Below, piece after piece: positions 5,012 to 54,893 of a stretch of DNA of 64,000 nucleotides. The position numbers and the translations under genes are program-made. The notes below the pieces were generated by a model. That model worked only from the letters and a program-made list of their open reading frames with translations. It was not told the DNA's origin and did not search any database. Positions within the stretch are counted from its first letter, which is position 1. Each line of letters starts with the position of its first letter. Source of the DNA: Lachnospiraceae bacterium (GTDB lineage Bacteria; Bacillota; Clostridia; Lachnospirales; Lachnospiraceae); the NCBI GenBank assembly GCA_028696165.1, contig JAQVHQ010000011.1:1866-65865 (forward strand). The letters run 5' to 3'.

Positions 5012-5021
5012 GTTCAAAGAA

Positions 5022-5176
5022 ACACGCTAGGGGCGCTTTTAGCTGAGATTGTTAGATAAATTAACAGACCCTCATTACTTGAACCGGATAATACCGGCGT
5101 AAGGAAGCTTATTGATAAAATATCCATTATCAAAAAGTCAAAGCACCCTCCACGTGAAAACGAAGGAGGTTTTTTT
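5022..5176 (+). promoter_or_regulatory. TPP (thi-box) riboswitch with terminator/RBS-sequestering hairpin
   Basis: CTAGGGGCGC...GCTGAGA...ACCCTCATTACTTGAACCGGATAATACCGGCGTAAGGAAGC matches thi-box core; expression platform CCTCC(5147-5151)/GGAGG(5165-5169) plus T7 run directly before ATG 5177. Confidence 0.85.
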
Positions 5177-5842
5177 ATGTTTTCATTTCTTGTTAACGTA
5201 GACGGCGGATTGACCACAGCCGGTTATGCCGTATCCATCATCGCAGCCATCGTGCTGCTGCTTGCTGCATGTTTTCTTGCAGGCAAGGTATCTAATTCTA
5301 AAAAGATGAGTGCCAAACAGATTACTTTCTGTGCGGTTGCCCTGGCACTGGCATTTGTCACTTCTTATCTGAAAATTTTCCCGCTTCCTTTTGGCGGCAG
5401 TGTGACTTTATTCAGCATGCTGTTTATCGTACTGATTGGTTACTGGTATGGGATTAAAGTTGGTATTCTTACCGGTTTTGCTTATGGTATCCTGCAGTTT
5501 GTCCAGGAACCCTATGTACTATCACTGTTCCAGGTATGCTGTGATTACCTTTTGGCATTTGCTGCACTGGGATTATCCGGACTCTTTACTAAGTCTAAAA
5601 ATGGACTTTTGAAAGGATATCTTGTGGCGATTTTTGCCCGCGGGTTCTTCCATGCTTTAGGCGGCTACCTGTACTGGATGTCCTATATGCCGGAGAACTT
5701 CCCAAAATCGCTGACTGCTGTATATCCTATCGTTTACAATTACAGCTATATCCTGGCAGAAGGAGTTATAACCATTATTGTCATCAGTATACCTGCAGTT
5801 AAGAAAGCATTGGAACAGGTAAAACAGACTGCACTTAGTTAA
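5177..5842 (+). CDS. thiT: thiamine transporter, ECF S-component ThiT-like
   Basis: 221-aa polytopic membrane ORF directly behind TPP riboswitch; GGSVTLFSML motif resembles ThiT/YuaJ family. Confidence 0.7.
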   Translation: MFSFLVNVDGGLTTAGYAVSIIAAIVLLLAACFLAGKVSNSKKMSAKQITFCAVALALAFVTSYLKIFPLPFGGSVTLFSMLFIVLIGYWYGIKVGILTGFAYGILQFVQEPYVLSLFQVCCDYLLAFAALGLSGLFTKSKNGLLKGYLVAIFARGFFHALGGYLYWMSYMPENFPKSLTAVYPIVYNYSYILAEGVITIIVISIPAVKKALEQVKQTALS

Positions 5843-10278: not shown

Positions 10279-10426
10279 AATTTCTCCCTTACCAAAACTA
10301 CAATATAACAATAAAATCATATGTAACCATTCTCATGATAAGCTCATACATAATATAAACTTTCATCCAACTTCCACTCTATCTTACAACGAAACAAACG
10401 TTCGCACAAGCATTTTCTAATATTAA

Positions 10427-10795
10427 CCCCCATACTCCCTCAATCCCCGTGCCATTAAAATGGCACGCGCCCTCACTGCCACCCACAATCCAAGCCCCTA
10501 ACCCCCATGCTCCCTCAACCCCCGTGCCATCAAAATGGCACGCGCCCTCACTGCCACCCACAATCCAAGCCCCTAACCTCCATACTCCCTCAACCCCGTG
10601 CCAAAATGGCACGTGCCCTCACTGCCACCCACAATCCAAGCCTCTAACCCCCATACTCCCTCAACCCCCGTGCCATCAAAATGGCACGCGCCCTCACTGC
10701 CACCCACAATCCAAGCCCCTAACCCCCATACCACCTCAACCCCCGTGCCATCAAAATGGCACGTGCCCTCACTGCCACCCACACAACCTCCCTCA
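10427..10795. repeat. 75-bp tandem repeat, 4 full plus 1 partial unit, C-rich on + strand, each with an internal 8-bp hairpin
   Basis: units at 10427, 10502, 10577 (71 bp), 10648, 10723; unit CCCCCATACTCCCTCAACCCCCGTGCCATCAAAATGGCACGCGCCCTCACTGCCACCCACAATCCAAGCCCCTAA. Confidence 0.95.
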
Positions 10796-10828
10796 ACCAC
10801 CACAACCCCGCCTCCAGCCCGAACCCAG

Positions 10829-11107
10829 CCAGCCAGAAAGCCTTACTAAGTAGCAAAACAGGCGGTGTTTATGGATATCAGAATCAGCTGATGAGTATCT
10901 TAGTGCGAAGGCACCCAAGTTTATGGGACGAAATGGTGCTTACAAAGCACCATTTCGAAGGCATCCTGAGGCAGGTATGCATCAGCATACCTGCCGAATA
11001 TGCCTGATTCCCATAAACTTGGGTGCCTTCACACTTAGATACTCACAGCGCAATGACCTATCCATAAACACCGCCTGCTTTGCTACTTAGTAAGGCTTTC
11101 TGGCTGG
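10829..11107. ncRNA. unclassified ornate structured element, family copy 1 of 3 (strand unresolved)
   Basis: 49-bp outer helix with one mismatch, GCTG/CAGC mini-helix, 35-bp second helix, two inner hairpins, invariant GTATGCATCAGCATAC at 10975-10990; same architecture at 21170 and 52907. Confidence 0.55.
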
Positions 11108-11122
11108 CGTCCCTCCCCCCAT

Positions 11123-14084: not shown

Positions 14085-14122
14085 GGGGTGATTTTAAAAA
14101 TATTTTTTTTCCAAGGCGGACG

Positions 14123-14303
14123 CAGCGGTTCCATACGGGCGAAAGTTGCGGAACGTGGGCAACGCCAGGGTGAACTATCTGTTAACTTCGACTAAGACGC
14201 TCGGGAACGCCCTCGCGCCTAAGTCTTCGTAAACAGAGGATTTCACCCTGGCTAAGAGCGCCCACTGAATTGTTCCGCGACTTTCGCCCGTATGGAACCG
14301 CTG
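14123..14303. other. 181-nt nested imperfect palindrome (possible structured RNA, + sense favoured)
   Basis: outer arms CAGCGGTTCCATACGGGCGAAAGTTGCGGAAC / GTTCCGCGACTTTCGCCCGTATGGAACCGCTG (32 bp, one T.G), inner arms GTGGGC..GCCAGGGTGAA / TTCACCCTGGC..GCCCAC. Confidence 0.5.
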
Positions 14304-14413
14304 CTGATTTTGGTTGGGACTTTATTTTTTTCTTTCCTTTGTGGTTATATTTAACGGTTATATTTATTGCTTATTTCCTTATTGCTCTTATATTTTACAA
14401 TTTTTCGTTATAT

Positions 14414-14478
14414 TTATTCTTTACGCCTATTCTTTACGCCTATTCTTTATATCTATTCTTTATATCTATTCTTTATAT
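14414..14478. repeat. 13-bp tandem repeat x5 (CTATTCTTTACGC / CTATTCTTTATAT) in T-rich leader region
   Basis: direct reading of consecutive 13-mers. Confidence 0.9.
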
Positions 14479-17935: not shown

Positions 17936-18039
17936 TTTTTCTCCTTTTCTTATAAAAGCATTTACAATTGTTCTCTTAAATTTAAGCTGAGGAACTGTTT
18001 CCGCAGACATTTATCTCTTATAAAATTATTTATCCTGAG

Positions 18040-18343
18040 AGAAGATAAAGCCTCCAGCGGATTGCATTCAACATAAAAAACGCCCCTCCCTGCATTAAAT
18101 ATATACAGGAAGGGGCGACAAATTCGCGGTTCCACCCTTCGTTGTCCTTCATTACCAAAGACATCTCAATTGCGATTATAACGGCATCACCGGACCTGAT
18201 TAAAGGTCACTCCGAGGTGGTCTTCCACTGCTTCCCATCAAGATACTTTCACCATATGTACCTCTCTCTGGTATGTTCCACAACTTACTTTCCTCATCCT
18301 TGTGTTAGCTTATTGAAATATATTATCTATGTTTCTCATCTGT
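18040..18343 (-). promoter_or_regulatory. T-box leader of thrS
   Basis: minus sense AAGGGTGGAACCGCGAATT (T-box sequence, 18131-18149) overlapping terminator GTCGCCCCTTCCTG...CAGGGAGGGGCG plus TTTTTT (18075-18129); stem I with AGAGA and GTGA motifs; candidate specifier ACC (Thr) in GAGUGACCUUU. Confidence 0.85.
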
Positions 18344-18349
18344 ATGTTC

Positions 18350-18378
18350 ATTATAGATGTGTATTTTTAGATTGTCAA
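18350..18378 (-). promoter_or_regulatory. sigma-A consensus promoter of the thrS T-box leader
   Basis: minus sense TTGACA (18373-18378), 17-nt spacer, TATAAT (18350-18355). Confidence 0.75.
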
Positions 18379-18406
18379 GGCACTTTTCGCAGTATTTCCC
18401 AATGGG

Positions 18407-18497
18407 ATTTCTCACGGGTATTTCTCATGGGTATTTTTCATGTACATTTCTCATGCACATTTCTCGCACACATTTCTTGCACATGTTTCTCACGCAC
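18407..18497. repeat. 13-bp tandem repeat x7 (ATTTCTCAYGNRY)
   Basis: ATTTCTCACGGGT ATTTCTCATGGGT ATTTTTCATGTAC ATTTCTCATGCAC ATTTCTCGCACAC ATTTCTTGCACAT GTTTCTCACGCAC, abutting the HD gene stop codon. Confidence 0.9.
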
Positions 18498-18498
18498 A

Positions 18499-19251
18499 TT
18501 ATTTGTAAAAAAGTATGTTACGAATATTTTCCAGAATTTCTATGGTACTAGAATTATCTGATTTAAAACATGCCAATTTCCACATATACCCCTGTTCCAT
18601 TACCATCATCTGGCTTTCCGGATATACAAGTCCGAAAAATAAGGATAAGTGTCCTATCAAATGATCCACCGGTGTCTTCTTCAAACTTCTAAGAACCGTA
18701 TGCCCTTCCAAAAAAGCCTCATACACAGCTGGCGTTACAGATGCCTGTTTTAATTCCTCTGATGTCACATTATATATGTTCTCCATCCCCGTCTCATAAT
18801 TAGCCCGAAAGATATCTATCTTATCCGCATCGCGAATAACCTGAGCAAACAATTTTTCTCTGTTATTCAAATTTACAGGAATCTCATAGCGATTATGACA
18901 GCGTATCGCCATTTCCATCAATTCGTATTTAGAGGTATCCGGTTCAAACCATTCAATCAGGCCCTCTTTAAAAAGAAGATCCGCGCCAAATTCCGCATGG
19001 TCAATCGATTCTGAATCCATAAAAGTATCATATCTTTTCAGCTGTTCGAACCGTCCAATATCATGCAGCATCCCGATCTCCCAGTTTAACTCACAATCAT
19101 CCCCGGAAAGCTTCAGCGACCTTGCAATTCTAGCTGCATTTTCTGCAACTTTCTTTGTATGAATATATTTCAATTGTATCTTAGCATCAGACAAATCATA
19201 CGCCGCAGTATAACTATCAAATGCCTGTTCCACATGCCCTCTTGTATCCAT
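18499..19251 (-). CDS. HD domain-containing phosphohydrolase
   Basis: H..(LHDIGR)..DHAEFGA..RDADKID metal-binding pattern; start at MDTRGH (19251) preceded by GGAGGAAGA. Confidence 0.75.
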   Translation of the reverse strand: MDTRGHVEQAFDSYTAAYDLSDAKIQLKYIHTKKVAENAARIARSLKLSGDDCELNWEIGMLHDIGRFEQLKRYDTFMDSESIDHAEFGADLLFKEGLIEWFEPDTSKYELMEMAIRCHNRYEIPVNLNNREKLFAQVIRDADKIDIFRANYETGMENIYNVTSEELKQASVTPAVYEAFLEGHTVLRSLKKTPVDHLIGHLSLFFGLVYPESQMMVMEQGYMWKLACFKSDNSSTIEILENIRNILFYK

Positions 19252-19327
19252 TCTTCCTCCATCTTGACATAGGAGCAATCAACATAAACAATACGAACAG
19301 TCGAAATCTGCCTCGTTGCTTTTGCTA

Positions 19328-19432
19328 CTACTACTTTTATATCTACTACTTTTATATCTACTACTTTTACTCCTGTTGCTTTTACTCTTGTTGCTTTTAC
19401 TCTTGTTGCTTTTACTCTTGTTGCTTTTTCAC
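19328..19432. repeat. 15-bp tandem repeat x7 (CTACTACTTTTATAT drifting to TTGTTGCTTTTACTC)
   Basis: seven consecutive 15-mers read directly. Confidence 0.9.
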
Positions 19433-19689
19433 CATAACCACATTCATGATACAACAAGCTGCCCCACCTTTCAGCAAAAATACTCCTGTTCTCAATAAAA
19501 TTTTTATTACTTTTCATTAGACGTCTTAAGCACCTACATCATCAAACGAACCAAGTATATCATCCATAATAAAATTTTTCAACACCACCAACTCACCTCA
19601 GATAAGTTAGCGGTTTAACTGCATACTTCTTATAATTCACAACTCCGCTTTTTACCTTTCGCCTTATATCATACAGCTTAACTCTGCAC

Positions 19690-20760
19690 ATGAACTTCCC
19701 ATCCACCACTACGTATCATATTGGATATTTTTTCTTCTACATATGTACTTTTCTCTGGCCTTTACGTATCAAATTAGACAAACTTGCTTCTGTGCACGTA
19801 CTCCCCACCGGCTTTTACGTATCATATTAGACAAACTTGCTTCTGGATACGTACTCCCCGCCGACTTTTACGTATCATTTCGGCATTTCTTACTTCTGAA
19901 TACGTACTTGCATCCTGAATTTACGTGTCATTTCGGGCTTTTTTGCTTCTAGATACGTACCTGCAGCCTGAATTTACGTATCATTTCGGACTTTCTTGCT
20001 TCTGGATACGTACCTGCAGCCTGTATTTACGTGTCATTTCGGACTTTCTTGCTTCTGGATACGTACCTGCAGCCTGTATTTACGTGTCATTTCGGACTTT
20101 CTTGCTTCTGGATACGTACCTGCAGCCTGTATTCACGTGTCATTTCGGACTTTTTTGCTTCTGGATACGTACCTGCATCCTGAATTTACGTATCATTTCG
20201 GACTTTCTTGCTTCTGGATACGTACCTGCAGCCTGAATTTACGTGTCATTTCGGACTTTCTTGCTTCTGGATACGTACCTGCAGCCTGTATTTACGTGTC
20301 ATTTCGGACTTTCTTGCTTCTGGATACGTACCTGCAGCCTGTATTCACGTGTCATTTCGGACTTTTTTGCTTCTGGATACGTACCTGCAGCCTGTATTTA
20401 CGTGTCATTTCGGACTTTCTTGCTTCTGGATACGTACCCGCACCCTGAATTTACGTGTCATTTCGGACTTTCTTGCTTCTGGATACGTACCTGCAGCCTG
20501 TATTCACGTGTCATTTCGGACTTTTTTGCTTCTGGATACGTACCTGCAGCCTGAATTTACGTATCATTTCTATATTTTTTGCTTCTGGATACGTACTCCC
20601 ATCCTGTTTATACGTATCATTTCGACATTTTTCATTTCTGGATACGTACTCCCATCCTGTTTATACGTATCATTTCGACATTTTTCATTTCTGGATACGT
20701 ACCTGCATCCTGAATTTACGTATCATTTCGGACTTTCTTGCTTTTGGATACGTACTCCCA
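19690..20760. repeat. 53-bp satellite, about 20 units, 18 well-phased units from 19796 to 20749
   Basis: unit ACGTACCTGCAGCCTG[T/A]ATT[T/C]ACGT[G/A]TCATTTCGGACTTT[C/T]TTGCTTCTGGAT; degenerate units at both edges. Confidence 0.97.
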
Positions 20761-20937
20761 TTCAATATTCACCTATCAAACAGCCAACTTCCTTATATGT
20801 ACATGCAAGAACAATCTTTTTTCATAGCAATAGCTATACAAACCTTCCAATTCCCACATTCACCCACAAACTCAGCTTTTAACCATCCTACATCCACAGG
20901 CCCCGTGCCCACGGCACGCGATTTTCCACCACAACCT

Positions 20938-21140
20938 AATCCCCTCGCACAACACAAATCCCCCTCTCAACACAATCCTCTTCACAACACAAATCCCCCT
21001 TCACACCGCAATCCCCTTCACACCGCAATCCCCTTCACACCGCAATCCCCTTCACACCGCAATCCCCTTCACACCGCAATCCCCTTCACAACACAATCCC
21101 CTTCACACCGCAATCCCCTTCACAACATATATCCCTCCCC
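20938..21140. repeat. 18-bp C-rich tandem repeat, about 10 units (CACACCGCAATCCCCTTC)
   Basis: five perfect units 21002-21091 flanked by degenerate ones; GGGG every 18 nt on the minus strand. Confidence 0.9.
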
Positions 21141-21169
21141 ACCACCACAGCCAACACCGTCCATCCCAT

Positions 21170-21460
21170 CCGTAAGACTTTACAGCCGGCCAAAAGGATG
21201 GGGAAACTGCTGCTTTTCCCGGTCATAAAATGCGCTGATGAACTTCTTAGGGCGAAAGAGCCGACTACACAGGAATGAAAGGTGTTTACCAAAACACCTT
21301 TCAAAGGCACCCTGAAGGTTGTATGCATCAGCATACAGCCTGAATGTGCCTGGCTTCCTGCGTAGTCGGCTCTTTCACCCTTAGAAGTTCACAGCAAATG
21401 TTCCTGACCGGAAAAAGCAGCAGCTTCCCCATCCTTTTGGCCGGCTGTAAAGTCTTACGG
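21170..21460. ncRNA. unclassified ornate structured element, family copy 2 of 3
   Basis: 35+21-bp outer helix, GCTG/CAGC, 35-bp P2 with T.T and C.A mismatches, hairpin loop TTACCAAA, invariant GTATGCATCAGCATAC at 21321-21336. Confidence 0.55.
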
Positions 21461-21490
21461 ATGAACACACCCCACCTAACCTTCAACCCA

Positions 21491-22042
21491 CTACTTTCTC
21501 AAATAAGCCTCGCGCCCCTCTTCATAAAGATTCCTACCCTCGCAGTCAATAATAACCACCAAAGGCATATCCTCCACATAAAGCTTCCGCAAAGCCTCCG
21601 CACCCAAATCCTCATAAGCAATCAACTCACACTTCTTAATGCACTTTGCCAACAAAGCTCCCGCTCCGCCAATTGCACCAAAATAAACACCACTATACTT
21701 CTTCATGGCATCCACCACTTCCGGCAATCTTGCTCCTTTTCCAATCATTCCTCGGGCACCAACAGACATCATCGTCGGTGCATAAGCATCCATACGCCCG
21801 CTGGTAGTAGGTCCAGCTGATCCAATCACCTGACCCGGTTTTGCAGGTGTCGGTCCCACATAATAAATCGTAGCATCCGCAGGATCAAAAGGAAGCTTCT
21901 CCCCTCTCTCCAATGCCTCACACATCCTCTTGTGCCCTGCATCTCGAGAAGTATAAATAGTCCCTGTCAGATAAACACTATCCCCTGCATGCAGTGTCTT
22001 TGCCAACTCTTCCGTCAATGGAAGCTGTATATGTCTCTCCAT
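21491..22042 (-). CDS. class-I (Fe-S) fumarate hydratase / L(+)-tartrate dehydratase family, beta subunit
   Basis: 183-aa ORF, GTIYTSRDAGHKR, GPTTSGRMD, GKG motifs of FumA C-terminal domain proteins. Confidence 0.85.
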   Translation of the reverse strand: MERHIQLPLTEELAKTLHAGDSVYLTGTIYTSRDAGHKRMCEALERGEKLPFDPADATIYYVGPTPAKPGQVIGSAGPTTSGRMDAYAPTMMSVGARGMIGKGARLPEVVDAMKKYSGVYFGAIGGAGALLAKCIKKCELIAYEDLGAEALRKLYVEDMPLVVIIDCEGRNLYEEGREAYLRK

Positions 22043-27718: not shown

Positions 27719-29389
27719 CTATACATACAAATATGCAATCGCCTCATAAGGACGCAGCATTTTGTCTTCCATTGTTCCATCATTTTCATAATTGGAAATA
27801 TACAGTTCAGACTTCTTAACTTCAATTTCCTTTGGAAGAGTAAACTTCTGCTCTTCTTTGGTAAAATTCAATACCACAAGCATCTTCTGTTCTCCCAACT
27901 GTCGTGTGTATACATAAAGATCTGGATTTTCTTTATCATATTCACAAAATGAACCATATACCGCCACATCATATTTATGACGCTGCTGAATCAATTTCTG
28001 CATATAATGGAAAATCGAGTCCGAATCAGCCCTGGATTCTGCTGCATTAATCTCGCGATAATTTTCATTCATCTTAAGCCAAGGTTTGCCGGTGGTAAAT
28101 CCACCGTTAGCACTGTCATCCCACTGCATTGGAGTTCTGGCATTATCTCTGCCAATATATTCAATTGCTTTCATCAATTCATCCGGATTAGCATTGCCGT
28201 TGACTACTCTGTCATCCCAGGCGTTTCGTATCTGGATGTCCTGATAATCTTCAATGGAATCATACTTCACATTTGTCATGCCCAGTTCTTCACCCTGATA
28301 GATGTAAGGCGTACCCTGCATAGTCATAATCATGGTATAAAGCATTTTAGCACTTTCCTTGCGATACTTTTTGTCATCACCCCAACGGGATACACTTCTT
28401 GGCTGGTCATGATTGGCAAGATAGAGACTGTTCCATGCCAATCCTTCCAATTCTGTCTGCCATTTACTCATAATCTTCTTAAATGCCACCAGGTCAAATG
28501 GTCTCAGATTGAATTTATCTCCGTTAATATACTCCATAGTAACATGTTCAAATTGAAAAACCATGCTCATCTCACTGCCATCTGCAGCTGCATATTTCTT
28601 TGCTTCTTCTACGGTCACTGCAGAAGTCTCTCCAACAGTCATCATGTCTTTATATTTTGACATAACCTTCTGGTTCATCTCATTGAAAAATTCATGAATT
28701 CTTGGTCCATTTTGATAATGTTCTTCACCTATGTTTGCTCGGTCTGTCTTTCCGTCCGGAAGTCCTGGTGTCTTAGAATACATACTTGCCACATCAAGTC
28801 TGAATCCATCTACACCTTTCTGCATCCAGAAGTCCATGATATCATATACTTCATCTCTTACTACCGGATTTTCCCAGTTTAAGTCTGGTTGTTTCTTAGA
28901 GAAGATATGCAGGTAATACTGGTCTGTATTCTCATCATATTCCCATGCACTTCCGGAGAATCTTGAGGTCCAGTTGTTTGGCTCTTTACCATCTTTTCCA
29001 TCGCTCCACATATAGTAGTCACGATATGGGTTATCTTTTGATTTTCTGCTCTCTACAAACCATTTGTGTTCATCTGACGAATGATTCACAACTAAGTCTA
29101 CAATCAGGCGAATCCCACGTTTGTGCATTTCTTCCTGCATCTCATCAAAATCTTCCATGGTTCCAAATTCTTCCATGATGCCTCTGTAATCAGAGATATC
29201 ATAACCATTGTCGTCATTTGGCGATTTGTAATGAGGAGACAGCCATACTGCGTCAATTCCTAATTCCTGTAAATAATCCAGACGGGAAGTAATTCCCTTT
29301 AAATCTCCGATTCCATCACCGTTGGAATCCTGAAAACTCCTTGGATATATTTGATATACTACCGCTTCTTTCCACCATTTTTTGTCCAT
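27719..29389 (-). CDS. GH13 oligo-1,6-glucosidase / alpha-glucosidase (paralog 1)
   Basis: 556-aa ORF; WWKEAVVYQIYPRSF, DLVVNHSSDEH, GFRLDVA, VGE, NHDQPR conserved GH13 regions. Confidence 0.9.
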   Translation of the reverse strand: MDKKWWKEAVVYQIYPRSFQDSNGDGIGDLKGITSRLDYLQELGIDAVWLSPHYKSPNDDNGYDISDYRGIMEEFGTMEDFDEMQEEMHKRGIRLIVDLVVNHSSDEHKWFVESRKSKDNPYRDYYMWSDGKDGKEPNNWTSRFSGSAWEYDENTDQYYLHIFSKKQPDLNWENPVVRDEVYDIMDFWMQKGVDGFRLDVASMYSKTPGLPDGKTDRANIGEEHYQNGPRIHEFFNEMNQKVMSKYKDMMTVGETSAVTVEEAKKYAAADGSEMSMVFQFEHVTMEYINGDKFNLRPFDLVAFKKIMSKWQTELEGLAWNSLYLANHDQPRSVSRWGDDKKYRKESAKMLYTMIMTMQGTPYIYQGEELGMTNVKYDSIEDYQDIQIRNAWDDRVVNGNANPDELMKAIEYIGRDNARTPMQWDDSANGGFTTGKPWLKMNENYREINAAESRADSDSIFHYMQKLIQQRHKYDVAVYGSFCEYDKENPDLYVYTRQLGEQKMLVVLNFTKEEQKFTLPKEIEVKKSELYISNYENDGTMEDKMLRPYEAIAYLYV

Positions 29390-29472
29390 GATTTTTCCTT
29401 TCTAATCGCACAATATTTTATTCAATCACACCCCGGTGCATTATACCCTCAGTTCATCACACATACTAATAA

Positions 29473-29625
29473 CATACAGATACCGATAGCATACACATAC
29501 CGATAGCATACAGATACCGATAGCATACACATACCAATAGCATACAGATACCAATAGCATACACATACCAATAGCATACACATACCAATAGCATACACAT
29601 ACCAATAGCATACACATACTAATAT
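29473..29625. repeat. 17-bp tandem repeat x9 (CATACA[G/C]ATACC[G/A]ATAG) between the GH13 paralogs
   Basis: units phased from 29473; the first six alternate CAG/CAC giving a 34-bp higher-order period. Confidence 0.9.
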
Positions 29626-29734: not shown

Positions 29735-31405
29735 TTATTCATACAAATATACAACAGCTTCATAAGGCCGAAGACATTTATCCCCTATTTTCCCATCATT
29801 TTCATAGTTCGATATGTATAATTGTGATTTATTATATTCTATTTCTTTTGGTAAATGAAATTCTTTTTCTTCACCTGTAAAGTTCAATACAACAAGCATT
29901 TTCTGACCATCAAGCTCACGTGTATACACATAGAGCGATTCATTTTCCTCATCATACTCGTGAAAAGAGCCATATACAGCCACTGCGTTTTGCTTTCTCA
30001 GTTTTATCAATTTCTGCATATAATGGAAAATAGAATCTGGATTATCCAGTGATTCTTTTGCATTAATCTCTGTATAATTCCTGTTCATCTTCAGCCAGGG
30101 AGTTCCTGTCGTAAATCCACCATTCTTACTGTCATCCCACTGCATTGGTGTCCTGGCATTATCCCGTGAGATGACGCTGAGTGTATCCAGCATTTCTTCC
30201 GGCGACACCATACCAGTTAATACGCGTTCTTTCCAGATAGTCCGGACATTTATATCCTGATAGTCTTCAATGGATGTATACCCTGCATTGGTCATTCCCA
30301 GTTCCTCTCCCTGATAAATATAGGGTGTTCCCTGCATGGTCATTATCATCGTATACAGCATTTTAGCACTTTCATTTCGATACTTCTTGTCATCGCCCCA
30401 TCGGGACACACTTCTTGGCTGGTCATGATTTGCCAGATACAGGCTGTTCCATGCCAGACCGTCTAATTCAGTCTGCCACTTACTCATGACTTTTTTAAAT
30501 TCGCTCATCTTAAATGGTTTCAAGCTGTATCTGTCACCGTTTTTATATTCAAGATTAACATGCTCGAACTGAAAAATCATTCCCAATTCCTGCCTGTCTG
30601 TTCCAGAATACTTTTTGGCATCCTCTACAGTTACCGCTGCAATCTCACCAACTGTCATAATGTCATCATATTGAGATAACACTTTTTCATTCATCTCTTT
30701 AAAATATTCATGAATTCTTGGTCCATGGAGATAATATTCCGCTCCCACGTTAACATTATTCAAATCTCCATCAGGCAGTCCCTCGGTTTTAGAATAAGAA
30801 CCTGCGGCGTCTAATCGAAATCCATCCACACCTTTTTCGATCCAGAACTTCATCATATCATAGATTTCATCTCTGACTTTAGGATTTTCCCAATTCAAAT
30901 CAGGCTGTTTTGGAGAATATAAATGCAGATAGTATTGATTTGTCTCCCCATTATAATCCCACGCTTTTCCAGAAAATCTGGACACCCAGTTGTTCGGCTC
31001 TTTTCCATCCTTGCCATCACGCCATATATAGTAATCTCTATATGGATTATCTTTGGATTTCTTGCTTTCCACAAACCACTCATGCTCATCTGAAGTATGA
31101 TTCACCACTAAATCAATGACCAGATGAATACCACGTTTACGCATTTCCTGCTGCATCTCGTCAAAATCTTCCATCGTACCAAATTCGTCCATGATATCCC
31201 GGTAATCCGAGATATCATAGCCATTATCATCATTTGGCGACTTAAAATGCGGAGACAACCACACAGTATCAATACCTAATTCCTGCAAATAATCTAATCT
31301 GGAAGTAATTCCCTTCAAATCTCCAATTCCATCTCCGTTGGAATCCTGAAAACTTCTTGGATATATTTGATATACAACTGCTTCTTTCCACCATTTTCTG
31401 TCCAT
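29735..31405 (-). CDS. GH13 oligo-1,6-glucosidase / alpha-glucosidase (paralog 2)
   Basis: 556-aa ORF colinear with paralog 1, same length, long identical peptide stretches. Confidence 0.9.
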   Translation of the reverse strand: MDRKWWKEAVVYQIYPRSFQDSNGDGIGDLKGITSRLDYLQELGIDTVWLSPHFKSPNDDNGYDISDYRDIMDEFGTMEDFDEMQQEMRKRGIHLVIDLVVNHTSDEHEWFVESKKSKDNPYRDYYIWRDGKDGKEPNNWVSRFSGKAWDYNGETNQYYLHLYSPKQPDLNWENPKVRDEIYDMMKFWIEKGVDGFRLDAAGSYSKTEGLPDGDLNNVNVGAEYYLHGPRIHEYFKEMNEKVLSQYDDIMTVGEIAAVTVEDAKKYSGTDRQELGMIFQFEHVNLEYKNGDRYSLKPFKMSEFKKVMSKWQTELDGLAWNSLYLANHDQPRSVSRWGDDKKYRNESAKMLYTMIMTMQGTPYIYQGEELGMTNAGYTSIEDYQDINVRTIWKERVLTGMVSPEEMLDTLSVISRDNARTPMQWDDSKNGGFTTGTPWLKMNRNYTEINAKESLDNPDSIFHYMQKLIKLRKQNAVAVYGSFHEYDEENESLYVYTRELDGQKMLVVLNFTGEEKEFHLPKEIEYNKSQLYISNYENDGKIGDKCLRPYEAVVYLYE

Positions 31406-31433
31406 TATTGTTGTTCCTCTCGCTTTGTAAGTG

Positions 31434-52752: not shown

Positions 52753-52906
52753 TGTTTGTTGGCGATAACTGGGAAAGGCGAGATAACATTTGTTCCCTGG
52801 TGGGGATGCCCTTTGGGTGGTTGCGGGCGTGACTGTGTGGATTGTCTGTTTTTTATATTCGTGATATGTTGTGTTGATAAATATATGCGTACTTAACAAT
52901 AAGCAG

Positions 52907-53193
52907 CCGTAGCACGAAGAACACCCATCTGACTGCGGAAAAGTCGAGTTTTTATGGATATGGGATGAGCTGATATACATCTTGATGCGAAAGAACCGGT
53001 TACAGCCGGGCGACGGGTATTTACCAAAATACCCGTCGAGGACGCTCTGAGGCGTGTATGCATCAGCATACACACCGAATGCGGCCGCTCCCGGCTGTAA
53101 CCGGTTCTTTCACATCTAGATGTATACAGCAAAATCCCCCTATCCATAAAAACCGACTTTCCCGCAGTCAGATGGGTGTTCTTCGTGTTACGG
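52907..53193. ncRNA. unclassified ornate structured element, family copy 3 of 3
   Basis: about 57-bp outer helix, GCTG/CAGC, 36-bp P2 with T.T and C.A mismatches, hairpin loop TTACCAAA, invariant GTATGCATCAGCATAC at 53056-53071. Confidence 0.55.
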
Positions 53194-53198
53194 CGTCC

Positions 53199-54893
53199 TC
53201 ACTCCACCTTCTCCAATCGCCCCACAACAATCTTCCTAAGCATCTCCACCTTCTCTTCAGCCTCTGCTGCATTCTTCCCCCTGGTATAAATATAAATCTT
53301 AATCTTTGGTTCCGTTCCCGAAGGTCTGACTGCAAACCAGCTTCCATCTTCTAATAGAAACTTCAGTACATTTGAAGGCCCTATATCTTCATATCCGTTA
53401 ATATAATCAATTTCCTTTGCCACCTTAATCCCATCATATTCCATTAATGGATTCTCGCGATAGGAAATCATCATACGTTCAATTCTCTTAGCCCCCTCTA
53501 TTCCATCATAAATCAGTGAAATCTGAGCTTCTTTGTAGTATCCATATTGCCTGTAAATATCTTCCAGCACATCTAACAAACTTTTCCCCATCTTTTTATA
53601 ATATGCCGCAGCTTCACACACCAGCATAGAAGTACTTACTCCATCTTTATCTCTCACAGCTTCACTGGGAGCATAACCGATACTCTCTTCATAGCCAAAT
53701 AAATAACGATATCCTTCCTGTTCCATAACCGGAATTTTTCCACAGATATTTTTAAATCCTGTCAGGGACTCATACATCTTTACTCCATGCTGTTTTGCTA
53801 TTTCTTTTCCCAAATCTCCCGTTACGATAGATTTTACCATTGCTCCATTATCAGGAAGACTTCCCTTGGTCAAAAGTCCTTCTAATATATAGTTAATCAG
53901 CAGTACCCCTGCCTGATTTCCATTAATCGGAACATAGTCTCCCTGCTTATTTCTTACTTCCATAGCAAAACGATCGCTGTCTGGATCGGTTGCAATAAGA
54001 ATATCTGCCGATTTTTCCCCGCCTAATTTTTCAGCATATTTGAATGCTTTTGTATCTTCAGGATTCGGATATCCTACCGTAGGAAAGTCTCCGTCCGGGT
54101 GCTCTTGTTCAGGAACCACAGATACATTAGCAAAGCCTCTTCTTTTTAATATCTTTTGCACAGGTATACTTCCAGCTCCATTTAATGGTGTATAGACAAT
54201 AGACACTGTCTTATCAAGATCTTCTTCTCTTGCCATAGCCAGTCCTTCCACCATTTTCAAATAAGCTTCATCCATTTCTTCGCCTAAGTACTCCAACAGA
54301 TTTTTCTCTGCTGCGCTGTCCAATGATATGCTTTTGATATCCTCAAACATATCGACCTGTGTGATTTCTTCTGTCATCCCATCTGCGATATACTCGGCAA
54401 CCTGTGCGCCGTCTTCCCAATAGACTTTGTACCCGTTATATTCTTTGGGATTATGGCTTGCCGTAATATTAATTCCCGCTGATGCACCTGTTTTTCTTAT
54501 GGCAAATGATAGTTCCGGTGTTGGTCTAAGGGATGGAAACAGGTAGACTTTTATGTTATTTCCAGCAAGAATCTGTGCGGCATACTCTGCAAATTCCCGG
54601 GAATGATGGCGGCTGTCGTATGCTATTACTACGCCTTTATGCATACAGTCTTCGCCCTGCTTTTTCATATAGTCAGCAATGCCCTGGGTAGCTTTTCCAA
54701 CGGTATACCTGTTCATCCGGTTAATTCCAGCTCCCATTTTTCCTCTAAGGCCAGCCGTGCCAAAGGATAAGGGTTTATAGAATCTCTCTTTAATCTCCTG
54801 CTCATCCTGCTTGATGGCAAGTAATTCTTTCTTTGTATCAGCATCCAAATTCTTGTTGTTCAGCCATTCTTCATATATCTTTACTGCATCCAT
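53199..54893 (-). CDS. phosphoglucomutase / phosphomannomutase family protein
   Basis: 564-aa ORF; active-site TASHNPKEYNGYK, metal loop ATDPDSDR, GYEESIG. Confidence 0.92.
   Translation of the reverse strand: MDAVKIYEEWLNNKNLDADTKKELLAIKQDEQEIKERFYKPLSFGTAGLRGKMGAGINRMNRYTVGKATQGIADYMKKQGEDCMHKGVVIAYDSRHHSREFAEYAAQILAGNNIKVYLFPSLRPTPELSFAIRKTGASAGINITASHNPKEYNGYKVYWEDGAQVAEYIADGMTEEITQVDMFEDIKSISLDSAAEKNLLEYLGEEMDEAYLKMVEGLAMAREEDLDKTVSIVYTPLNGAGSIPVQKILKRRGFANVSVVPEQEHPDGDFPTVGYPNPEDTKAFKYAEKLGGEKSADILIATDPDSDRFAMEVRNKQGDYVPINGNQAGVLLINYILEGLLTKGSLPDNGAMVKSIVTGDLGKEIAKQHGVKMYESLTGFKNICGKIPVMEQEGYRYLFGYEESIGYAPSEAVRDKDGVSTSMLVCEAAAYYKKMGKSLLDVLEDIYRQYGYYKEAQISLIYDGIEGAKRIERMMISYRENPLMEYDGIKVAKEIDYINGYEDIGPSNVLKFLLEDGSWFAVRPSGTEPKIKIYIYTRGKNAAEAEEKVEMLRKIVVGRLEKVE

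Follow-up and report, generated by a model that had tools for sequence, protein, structure and literature searches.

A species-specific 53-bp minisatellite with two low-variability TACGTA-core sites per unit in the fumB-HD gene gap of a Lachnospiraceae genome

Bacterial minisatellites and VNTR/MLVA loci consist of head-to-tail units of ~10-100 bp in non-coding DNA, with a homogenized centre, degenerate edges and block duplications that point to unequal recombination or slippage, and their units are species-specific. Long, clean examples are seldom reported from bacterial chromosomes; one reason is that short-read assemblies are interrupted or collapsed at such repeats, which also happens at the locus considered here. 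Other regularly repeated loci act as platforms for proteins. In the sopC centromere of the F plasmid, 12 repeats of 43 bp each carry a short inverted repeat that is bound by SopB. Like the iterons, such arrays adjoin partition or replication genes on plasmids, and their units span whole helical turns, with one dyad site each and many sites on one face of the DNA. CRISPR arrays combine regularly spaced, partially palindromic repeats in a non-coding region with unique spacers and cas genes. Finally, MIRUs are intergenic units dispersed over many loci, some of them with 53-bp variants, and each carries a small ORF; because MIRUs sit at gene starts, this ORF is coupled to the neighboring gene, and the coupling has been described at a spacing of -4 nt (PMC12548453).

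The array described here lies in a 64-kb stretch of DNA from an uncultured Lachnospiraceae (the window) and is an addition to the known class of bacterial VNTRs and minisatellites. It is made of head-to-tail 53-bp units in a non-coding gap (Table 1), and it shares with that class the uniform centre, the degenerate edges, the block duplication and the species-specific unit. Unlike typical members, it is unusually long for a bacterial chromosome (~1.1 kb, ~21 copies), it is free of indels, and its internal dyad is better conserved than the rest of the unit. Its likeness to MIRUs extends to a similar unit size, an intergenic position, the orientation of the flanking genes and one small ORF per unit with a 4-nt ATGA stop/start overlap. 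However, the unit is found at a single locus within the 64 kb, it has no sequence similarity to MIRUs, whose host belongs to an unrelated phylum, and its ORFs lie several hundred nucleotides from both genes and overlap the start or stop of neither. The 8-bp dyad in each unit, with cores 21 and 32 bp apart and a period of 53 bp, recalls sopC and the iterons, but the array is chromosomal and stands amid housekeeping genes, with no ParA, ParB or Rep gene nearby. With CRISPR it has in common the regular spacing, the partial palindrome and the non-coding location. A CRISPR array was nevertheless rejected because the whole 53-bp period repeats without spacers, as had been noted in the original prediction, which was made from the sequence alone; neither unique spacers, cas genes nor a CRISPR-like repeat were detected.

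Table 1. Features of the satellite and of the gap that contains it (positions in the 64-kb window; strand "." where none applies)
Feature	Position	Strand	Basis
Whole recognizable satellite, 21 units	19678..20790	.	Single register, no indels, divergence rising towards the edges
18 exactly phased units, each starting at the ACGTAC core	19796..20749	.	TRF and cutting every 53 bp
Homogenized centre, 12 units differing from the consensus TTGCTTCTGGATACGTACCTGCAGCCTGTATTTACGTGTCATTTCGGACTTTC at 0-7 positions	19943..20578	.	Mismatch count
Duplicated 4-unit block	19943..20366	.	Unit-by-unit mismatches
Site A, example (GATACGTAC, recurring every 53 bp)	20005..20013	+	Motif count
Site B, example (TTACGT[A/G]TCA)	20027..20036	+	Motif count
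Eleven consecutive 18-codon mini-ORFs, M(T/I)R(K/E)(Y/F)R(L/M/V)(Q/R)VRIQKQ(E/K)SPK	19981..20567	-	ORF reading
HD / HDIG-domain protein, downstream flank	18499..19251	-	
Promoter-like site, TTGAAA-17-TATACT with TG, in the interval from array to HD gene	19554..19582	-	Consensus match only
17-bp tandem array, ~11 copies, C-rich on the + strand, same gap	20930..21135	.	TRF
Palindromic element of ~300 bp directly after the fumB stop, dispersed family, separate from the satellite	21167..21463	.	
Class I fumarate hydratase beta subunit, fumB (Fumerase_C), upstream flank	21491..22042	-	

At the scale of the neighborhood, the satellite sits in a 2.2-kb gene-free gap between fumB and the HD-domain gene. 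Around it, every large ORF lies on the - strand and the GC skew is negative throughout. The fumAB genes for class I fumarate hydratase span 22906-21491 on the - strand, and the HD gene is followed on the same strand by thrS, DUF1540 and infC-rpmI-rplT. Read along the - strand, the gap holds the palindromic element (21463-21167), the 17-bp array (21135-20930), the 53-bp array, the promoter-like site (19582-19554) and a 15-bp array (19428-19315). Inside the 53-bp array, no - strand ORF of at least 40 aa was found, and a promoter/terminator scan gave no hit. ORFs of up to 257 aa exist on the + strand because this strand is A-poor; coding there was rejected, as none reached the threshold of any Pfam or NCBIfam family and no relative of them was found among 5.8 billion proteins. 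Closer to the HD gene, and overlapping its start, a 115-aa ORF on the - strand (19170-19517) contains the 15-bp repeats, which it reads as the repeated pentapeptides KATRV and KVVDI. In a metagenome-assembled genome (MAG) of the same locus it is annotated as a gene, but it has no family match above threshold, and the repeat has probably given rise to a spurious call.

When the sequence is cut every 53 bp, 21 recognizable units share one register over 19678-20790 without any indel. Eighteen of these units (19796-20749) are exactly phased, being in perfect register when cut from 19796, and degenerate units flank this core on both sides. TRF reported the array at 19836-20755 (period 53, 17.4 copies, 90% matches, 0% indels, score 1339) and, in addition, a diverged left part at 19761-19908. 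Counted from left to right (register 19678+53k), mismatches per unit against the central consensus are 24, 21, 18, 11, 7, 3, 0, 0, 2, 3, 1, 0, 2, 0, 3, 2, 7, 11, 14, 6 and 21, a smooth gradient from 0 in the centre to 24/53 at the left edge and 21/53 at the right. Beyond the array, mismatches jump to 35-42, which is the background level of 53-mers drawn at random from the window (mean 39, sd 3.2). All 21 units together comprise 16 distinct types, and the 18 phased units comprise 12 in an ordered set. A 4-unit block of 212 bp is duplicated: its copies at 19943-20154 and 20155-20366 differ at 1, 1, 0 and 0 positions in the successive units, and lag 4 gives the lowest mean mismatch between units of the array. 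The original prediction of an intergenic 53-bp satellite of about 20 units, 18 of them exactly phased and decaying at both edges, is therefore borne out by TRF, the common register and the two-sided gradient. It had also proposed higher-order repeats of 4 and 6 units; the former were recovered as the sole higher-order periodicity, and a 6-unit period was looked for and not found. Its suggestion of recent unequal recombination fits the decay towards the edges. A uniform centre with decaying edges is the characteristic mark left by unequal recombination or by slippage during replication, here with a recent 4-unit duplication. Altogether, the array is a real, old, recombinationally homogenized and species-specific minisatellite in non-coding DNA.

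The distribution of the unit was explored in one genome per species (185,579 species) and in JGI metagenome contigs. Only 8 isolated matches to the unit pattern were obtained (2 + 6 singles); none is similar to the window and they were treated as chance, the unit being found nowhere else. A known mobile element had been named as another possible source. Plasmid (PLSDB), phage and viral collections contained no match to the array, and an origin from any of these was rejected. The next relatives of the HD protein are only 66-71% identical, the FumB orthologues of the relatives 93%, and both are found in different gene contexts. The neighboring gaps in these relatives, wherever assembled, are short (1-405 bp) and hold no array; the contig that carries the HD gene of one relative ends 29 bp upstream of that gene. 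An ancestral operator was rejected, as no TACGTA, ACGTAC or CACGTG motif was found upstream of the HD orthologues in relatives. Neither the locus nor the unit was present in any other genome or metagenome scanned, and cross-species conservation therefore cannot be invoked.

At the scale of the unit, variation is concentrated outside two short sites. Site A (GATACGTAC) has 17 exact copies in the 64 kb and site B (TTACGTRTCA) has 14, all of them on the + strand and in the array (19846-20755 for site A). The counts expected by chance are 0.12 and 0.17, respectively, and the observed counts were reached in 0 of 100 shuffles. Since the remainder of the 64 kb contains no copy of either motif, the signal is not compositional. 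From the ACGT of site A it is 21 bp to the ACGT of site B, and from there another 32 bp to the ACGT of the next site A; these spacings and the 53-bp period correspond to 2, 3 and 5 helical turns. The unit thus laid out contains an 8-bp inverted repeat, GATACGTA / TACGT(A/G)TC, with a 15-nt loop (GATACGTA-N15-TACGTATC), along with three 6-bp palindromes (TACGTA twice and CTGCAG once). Among the 16 distinct unit types, the number of variant units per position is 1.1-1.2 in the two sites and 3.2-4.6 in the spacers, and the ACGT cores are ~4x less variable than the spacers. When a pair of 6-mers 21 bp apart was placed at all 53 circular offsets, the pair covering the ACGT cores was the least variable, with 9 variant cells vs ~32 expected. 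Moreover, TACGTATCA is intact in three left-edge units despite their 18-24/53 mismatches to the consensus. Of the 21 units, 19 retain the TCAT in site B (ATGA when read on the - strand), and the other 2 have TCAA (- strand TTGA). From these patterns we infer that the two TACGTA-core sites and their exact spacing are under some constraint. The two ACGT cores and the 8-bp stem with its 15-nt loop had both been pointed out in the original prediction, and both are real features of the repeated units. The further idea, of protein-binding sites lying on one DNA face, receives indirect support: the ACGT cores rank first of 53 in low variability and are 21 and 32 bp apart, but no binder, other motif copy in the window or cross-species conservation could be shown.

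Our preferred reading, to which we lean tentatively, is that the locus is a lineage-specific, non-coding DNA minisatellite of the VNTR type, which would work, if at all, as a phased protein-binding array. A 53-bp unit has been amplified head to tail to ~21 copies, each of which would keep two TACGTA-cored candidate sites, GATACGTAC and TACGT(A/G)TCA, forming the 8-bp dyad. With centres 21 and 32 bp apart, ~40 candidate sites would be aligned on one DNA face, and the spacers would be free to drift, unlike the sites and the exact 53-bp spacing. The most likely working mode, if there is one, may be that of phased binding sites for a putative dimeric DNA-binding protein. Lying 100-1200 bp upstream of the HD gene's promoter-like site, the array could then serve as a protein sink or a nucleoprotein platform, a design that would be analogous to the sopC centromere of the F plasmid or to iteron arrays. 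The alternatives to a role at the DNA level are weak, given the negative outcome of the Rfam, covariation, internal promoter/terminator, - strand folding, + strand ORF homology and mini-ORF constraint analyses. Other observations speak against binding. No DNA-binding gene lies beside the array, whose neighbors are fumAB, the HD protein gene, thrS, infC-rpmI-rplT and similar housekeeping genes. Single copies of the motif elsewhere in the 64-kb window, which would be the sign of a regulon, were sought and not found. The helical phasing is a single observation that would arise by chance in ~1 of 10 cases by our estimate, and the conserved TCAT of site B has a second possible reading, as the stop/start overlap (ATGA) of the mini-ORFs. 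As to known binding motifs, a chromosomal parS was rejected, with no match to TGTTNCACGTGAAACA in the window at up to 3 mismatches, and so were Spo0A-box, cop-box, sigma-54 and LytTR-type motifs, which were compared by eye and fit only a few edge units. A stronger version, in which ~40 in-phase TACGTA-core operator sites form a functional chromosomal platform that loads or sequesters a dimeric DNA-binding protein, is unlikely, though it deserves mention. Such a platform might be a natural decoy, a centromere-like locus or a nucleoid-organizing locus in a gut or digester Lachnospiraceae; its dosage would be tuned by repeat copy number, and it would resemble sopC while being chromosomal and without linked partition genes.

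Several explanations compete with this preferred reading. That the array is an assembly artefact, by spurious expansion of a short repeat, is hardly credible. Short-read contigs from three other runs do stop at the neighboring repeats (19403 and 21355-21476). However, on contig JAQUXX010000044 (MAG GCA_028692155.1) the sequence continues from the 17-bp array across the satellite into the HD gene and beyond, with the same edge units and the same flanks. This independent assembly spans the array, with at least 13 units, between unique sequence on both sides, and the array is therefore not an artefact, a concern that had been raised in the original prediction. On the side of an artefact, the MAG has 13 phased units vs 18 in the window, and it differs from the window at 43 positions in the 53-bp array and at 2 in ~22 kb of unique flank, with 2 further differences in the 17-bp array, at the contig end. 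The lower count could be due to short-read collapse or to true hypervariability. Mis-assembly would not create the ordered variant types or the smooth gradient towards the edges. It has also been considered that the + strand yields a repetitive non-coding RNA, antisense to its neighbors, with ~20 hairpins of the form GAUACGUA-N15-UACGU(A/G)UC that might act, for example, as a sponge for an RNA-binding protein. We regard this as very improbable. Four units do fold better than their shuffles in the + sense (z = -4.6) and not significantly so in the - sense (z = -1.2), the A/G variant stays paired (U.G) in the + sense only, and a perfect TATAAT (19631-19636) and a small hairpin with a T-run (~20903-20925), both read by eye, bracket the array on the + strand. 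The better + strand fold is, however, what any tandem repeat with an internal dyad would give, whatever its function. As a conserved RNA structure the hairpin was rejected by covariation: 0 of 8 stem pairs are changed on both sides, the stem is paired in 92.2% of cells vs 92.7% in shuffled controls, and the T-to-C variant disrupts a pair. At the Rfam 15 gathering score, the only match in the window is a TPP riboswitch at 5019-5122; the interval 19200-21600 has none even at E <= 1, and a tRNA/tmRNA search returned nothing. No promoter passed the scan, and all surrounding genes are on the opposite strand. The original prediction had itself doubted the RNA hairpin, having noted both the U.G pairing and the broken pair, and its doubt was justified. 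A slightly better case, still improbable, can be made for a MIRU-like array acting at the RNA level on the - strand, the sense of both flanking genes, where a chain of mini-ORFs had been missed in the original prediction. Termination and reinitiation would hand ribosomes from unit to unit on a long transcript from fumAB to the HD gene and would keep the mRNA translated and protected. Each of the eleven successive 18-codon ORFs has a TGA that overlaps the next ATG as ATGA, as in MIRUs, whose ORF is coupled at -4 nt to the neighboring gene (PMC12548453). The period of 53 equals 3x18-1, as this overlap requires, and the overlap sequence is ATGA in 19 of 21 units and TTGA in the other 2. Each ATG is preceded at a distance of 6 nt by a purine-rich AAGAAAG, and 14 of the 21 frames run through without interruption. 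On the other hand, the remaining 7 of 21 units have premature in-frame stops, and the Shine-Dalgarno-like element is weak. The chain is joined to neither gene: it starts ~700 nt past the fumB stop and ends ~430 nt short of the HD start, with stops and gaps in between, and the long palindromic element between fumB and the array may block read-through. The unit is, in addition, not dispersed to other loci within the window. Variation per site is 3.3, 2.9 and 2.2 at codon positions 1, 2 and 3, without enrichment at third positions, and 13 of 57 distinct mini-ORF variants are synonymous vs 20% expected at random. A test for coding constraint on the mini-ORFs thus found none, and any role that they have would therefore lie in ribosome traffic and not in a peptide.

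The most serious competitor of the phased binding array, and one that is nearly as likely, is a satellite without a role in the cell, neutral or selfish, that would have arisen by slippage or unequal crossing-over and would simply be the largest of many arrays. The low variability of the ACGT cores would then reflect the history of the amplified variants or a mutational bias and not selection. Tandem arrays make up 3.4% of the window, nearly all of them in intergenic DNA; at least 6 arrays other than the 53-bp one are intergenic, and the units of 13, 15, 17, 53 and 75 bp are unrelated. This load is far above that of ~40 kb from two related Lachnospiraceae, where only tiny arrays were seen, which points to a lineage-specific propensity. 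So many unrelated arrays imply a genome-wide tendency to make arrays regardless of function, and in a lineage that evidently forms and retains such arrays between its genes a neutral origin becomes more likely a priori. The unit is confined to this species and is accompanied by neither a partner gene nor a regulon motif. The centre is almost clonal (0-3 mismatches), and much of the apparent conservation there is therefore recent copying. Against neutrality, variation is distributed very unevenly along the unit, also in the old, diverged units of the edges, and there are 0 indels across the 21 units despite a substitution divergence of up to 45%. Bacterial genomes have a deletion bias. A useless 1.1-kb array of direct repeats should vanish quickly, yet the edges of this one are old enough to have decayed.

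The locus documents an uncultured Lachnospiraceae lineage with many intergenic arrays, at least one of which shows conservation below the level of the unit that is suggestive of a candidate binding site. If it is bound by a protein, the array would exemplify a naturally occurring decoy or binding-site array, tunable by copy number, on a bacterial chromosome. If unbound, it would still be a hypervariable marker for strain tracking, and also a caution for assembly and annotation, as gene callers can put spurious ORFs on such an array.

Other repeats and RNA features were recorded in the window. A dispersed family of long palindromic elements of ~300 bp is represented at 10828-11108, 21167-21463 and 52906-53194, and a 183-bp palindrome at 14122-14304 is listed with it. 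The copies at 21167-21463 (fumB) and 10828-11108 (polysaccharide deacetylase) begin within ~30 nt of a - strand stop codon, and the copy at 52906-53194 begins just past an ORF that ends at 53199. The centre of the family is conserved (GTATGCTGATGCATAC and a hairpin with a TTTTGGTAAA loop); the long arms differ among copies yet are complementary within each copy. RNAalifold on the three copies gave 120 pairs, 53 of them changed on both sides, and for one copy the folding energy is -233 kcal/mol (z = -22.6). The elements, which match no Rfam family, could be foldback/MITE-like DNA elements or a large structured RNA. One of them is adjoined by a 75-bp array of 4.9 copies (10424-10783), C-rich on the + strand, that lies ~100 bp upstream of an mgsA-like gene. 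Its units each contain the hairpin GTGCCATCAAAATGGCAC and, on the - strand, TGGCACGGGGGTTGAG, which is close to the sigma-54 -24/-12 consensus; a related GTGCCCACGGCAC hairpin is found at ~20905, between the 17-bp and the 53-bp arrays. Two 17-bp arrays of ~10 copies each, with unrelated units, were detected at 20930-21135 and 29459-29624. The former has a GGGG run every 17 nt on the - strand, which may form a long-loop G-quadruplex, and the latter separates two tandemly duplicated alpha-amylase genes (27720-29396 and 29736-31412; 556 aa each, 75% DNA identity). Arrays of 13-15 bp units lie upstream of thrS (18392-18500), upstream of the HD gene (19315-19428) and between infC and a + strand ORF (14394-14478). 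In the thrS leader (18010-18500, - strand), a strong terminator-like hairpin is present at 18117-18081, but no T-box reached the Rfam gathering score, an unusual situation for a thrS of the Firmicutes. The TPP riboswitch mentioned above (RF00059, + strand, 68 bits) stands upstream of a + strand gene cluster that starts at 5177.
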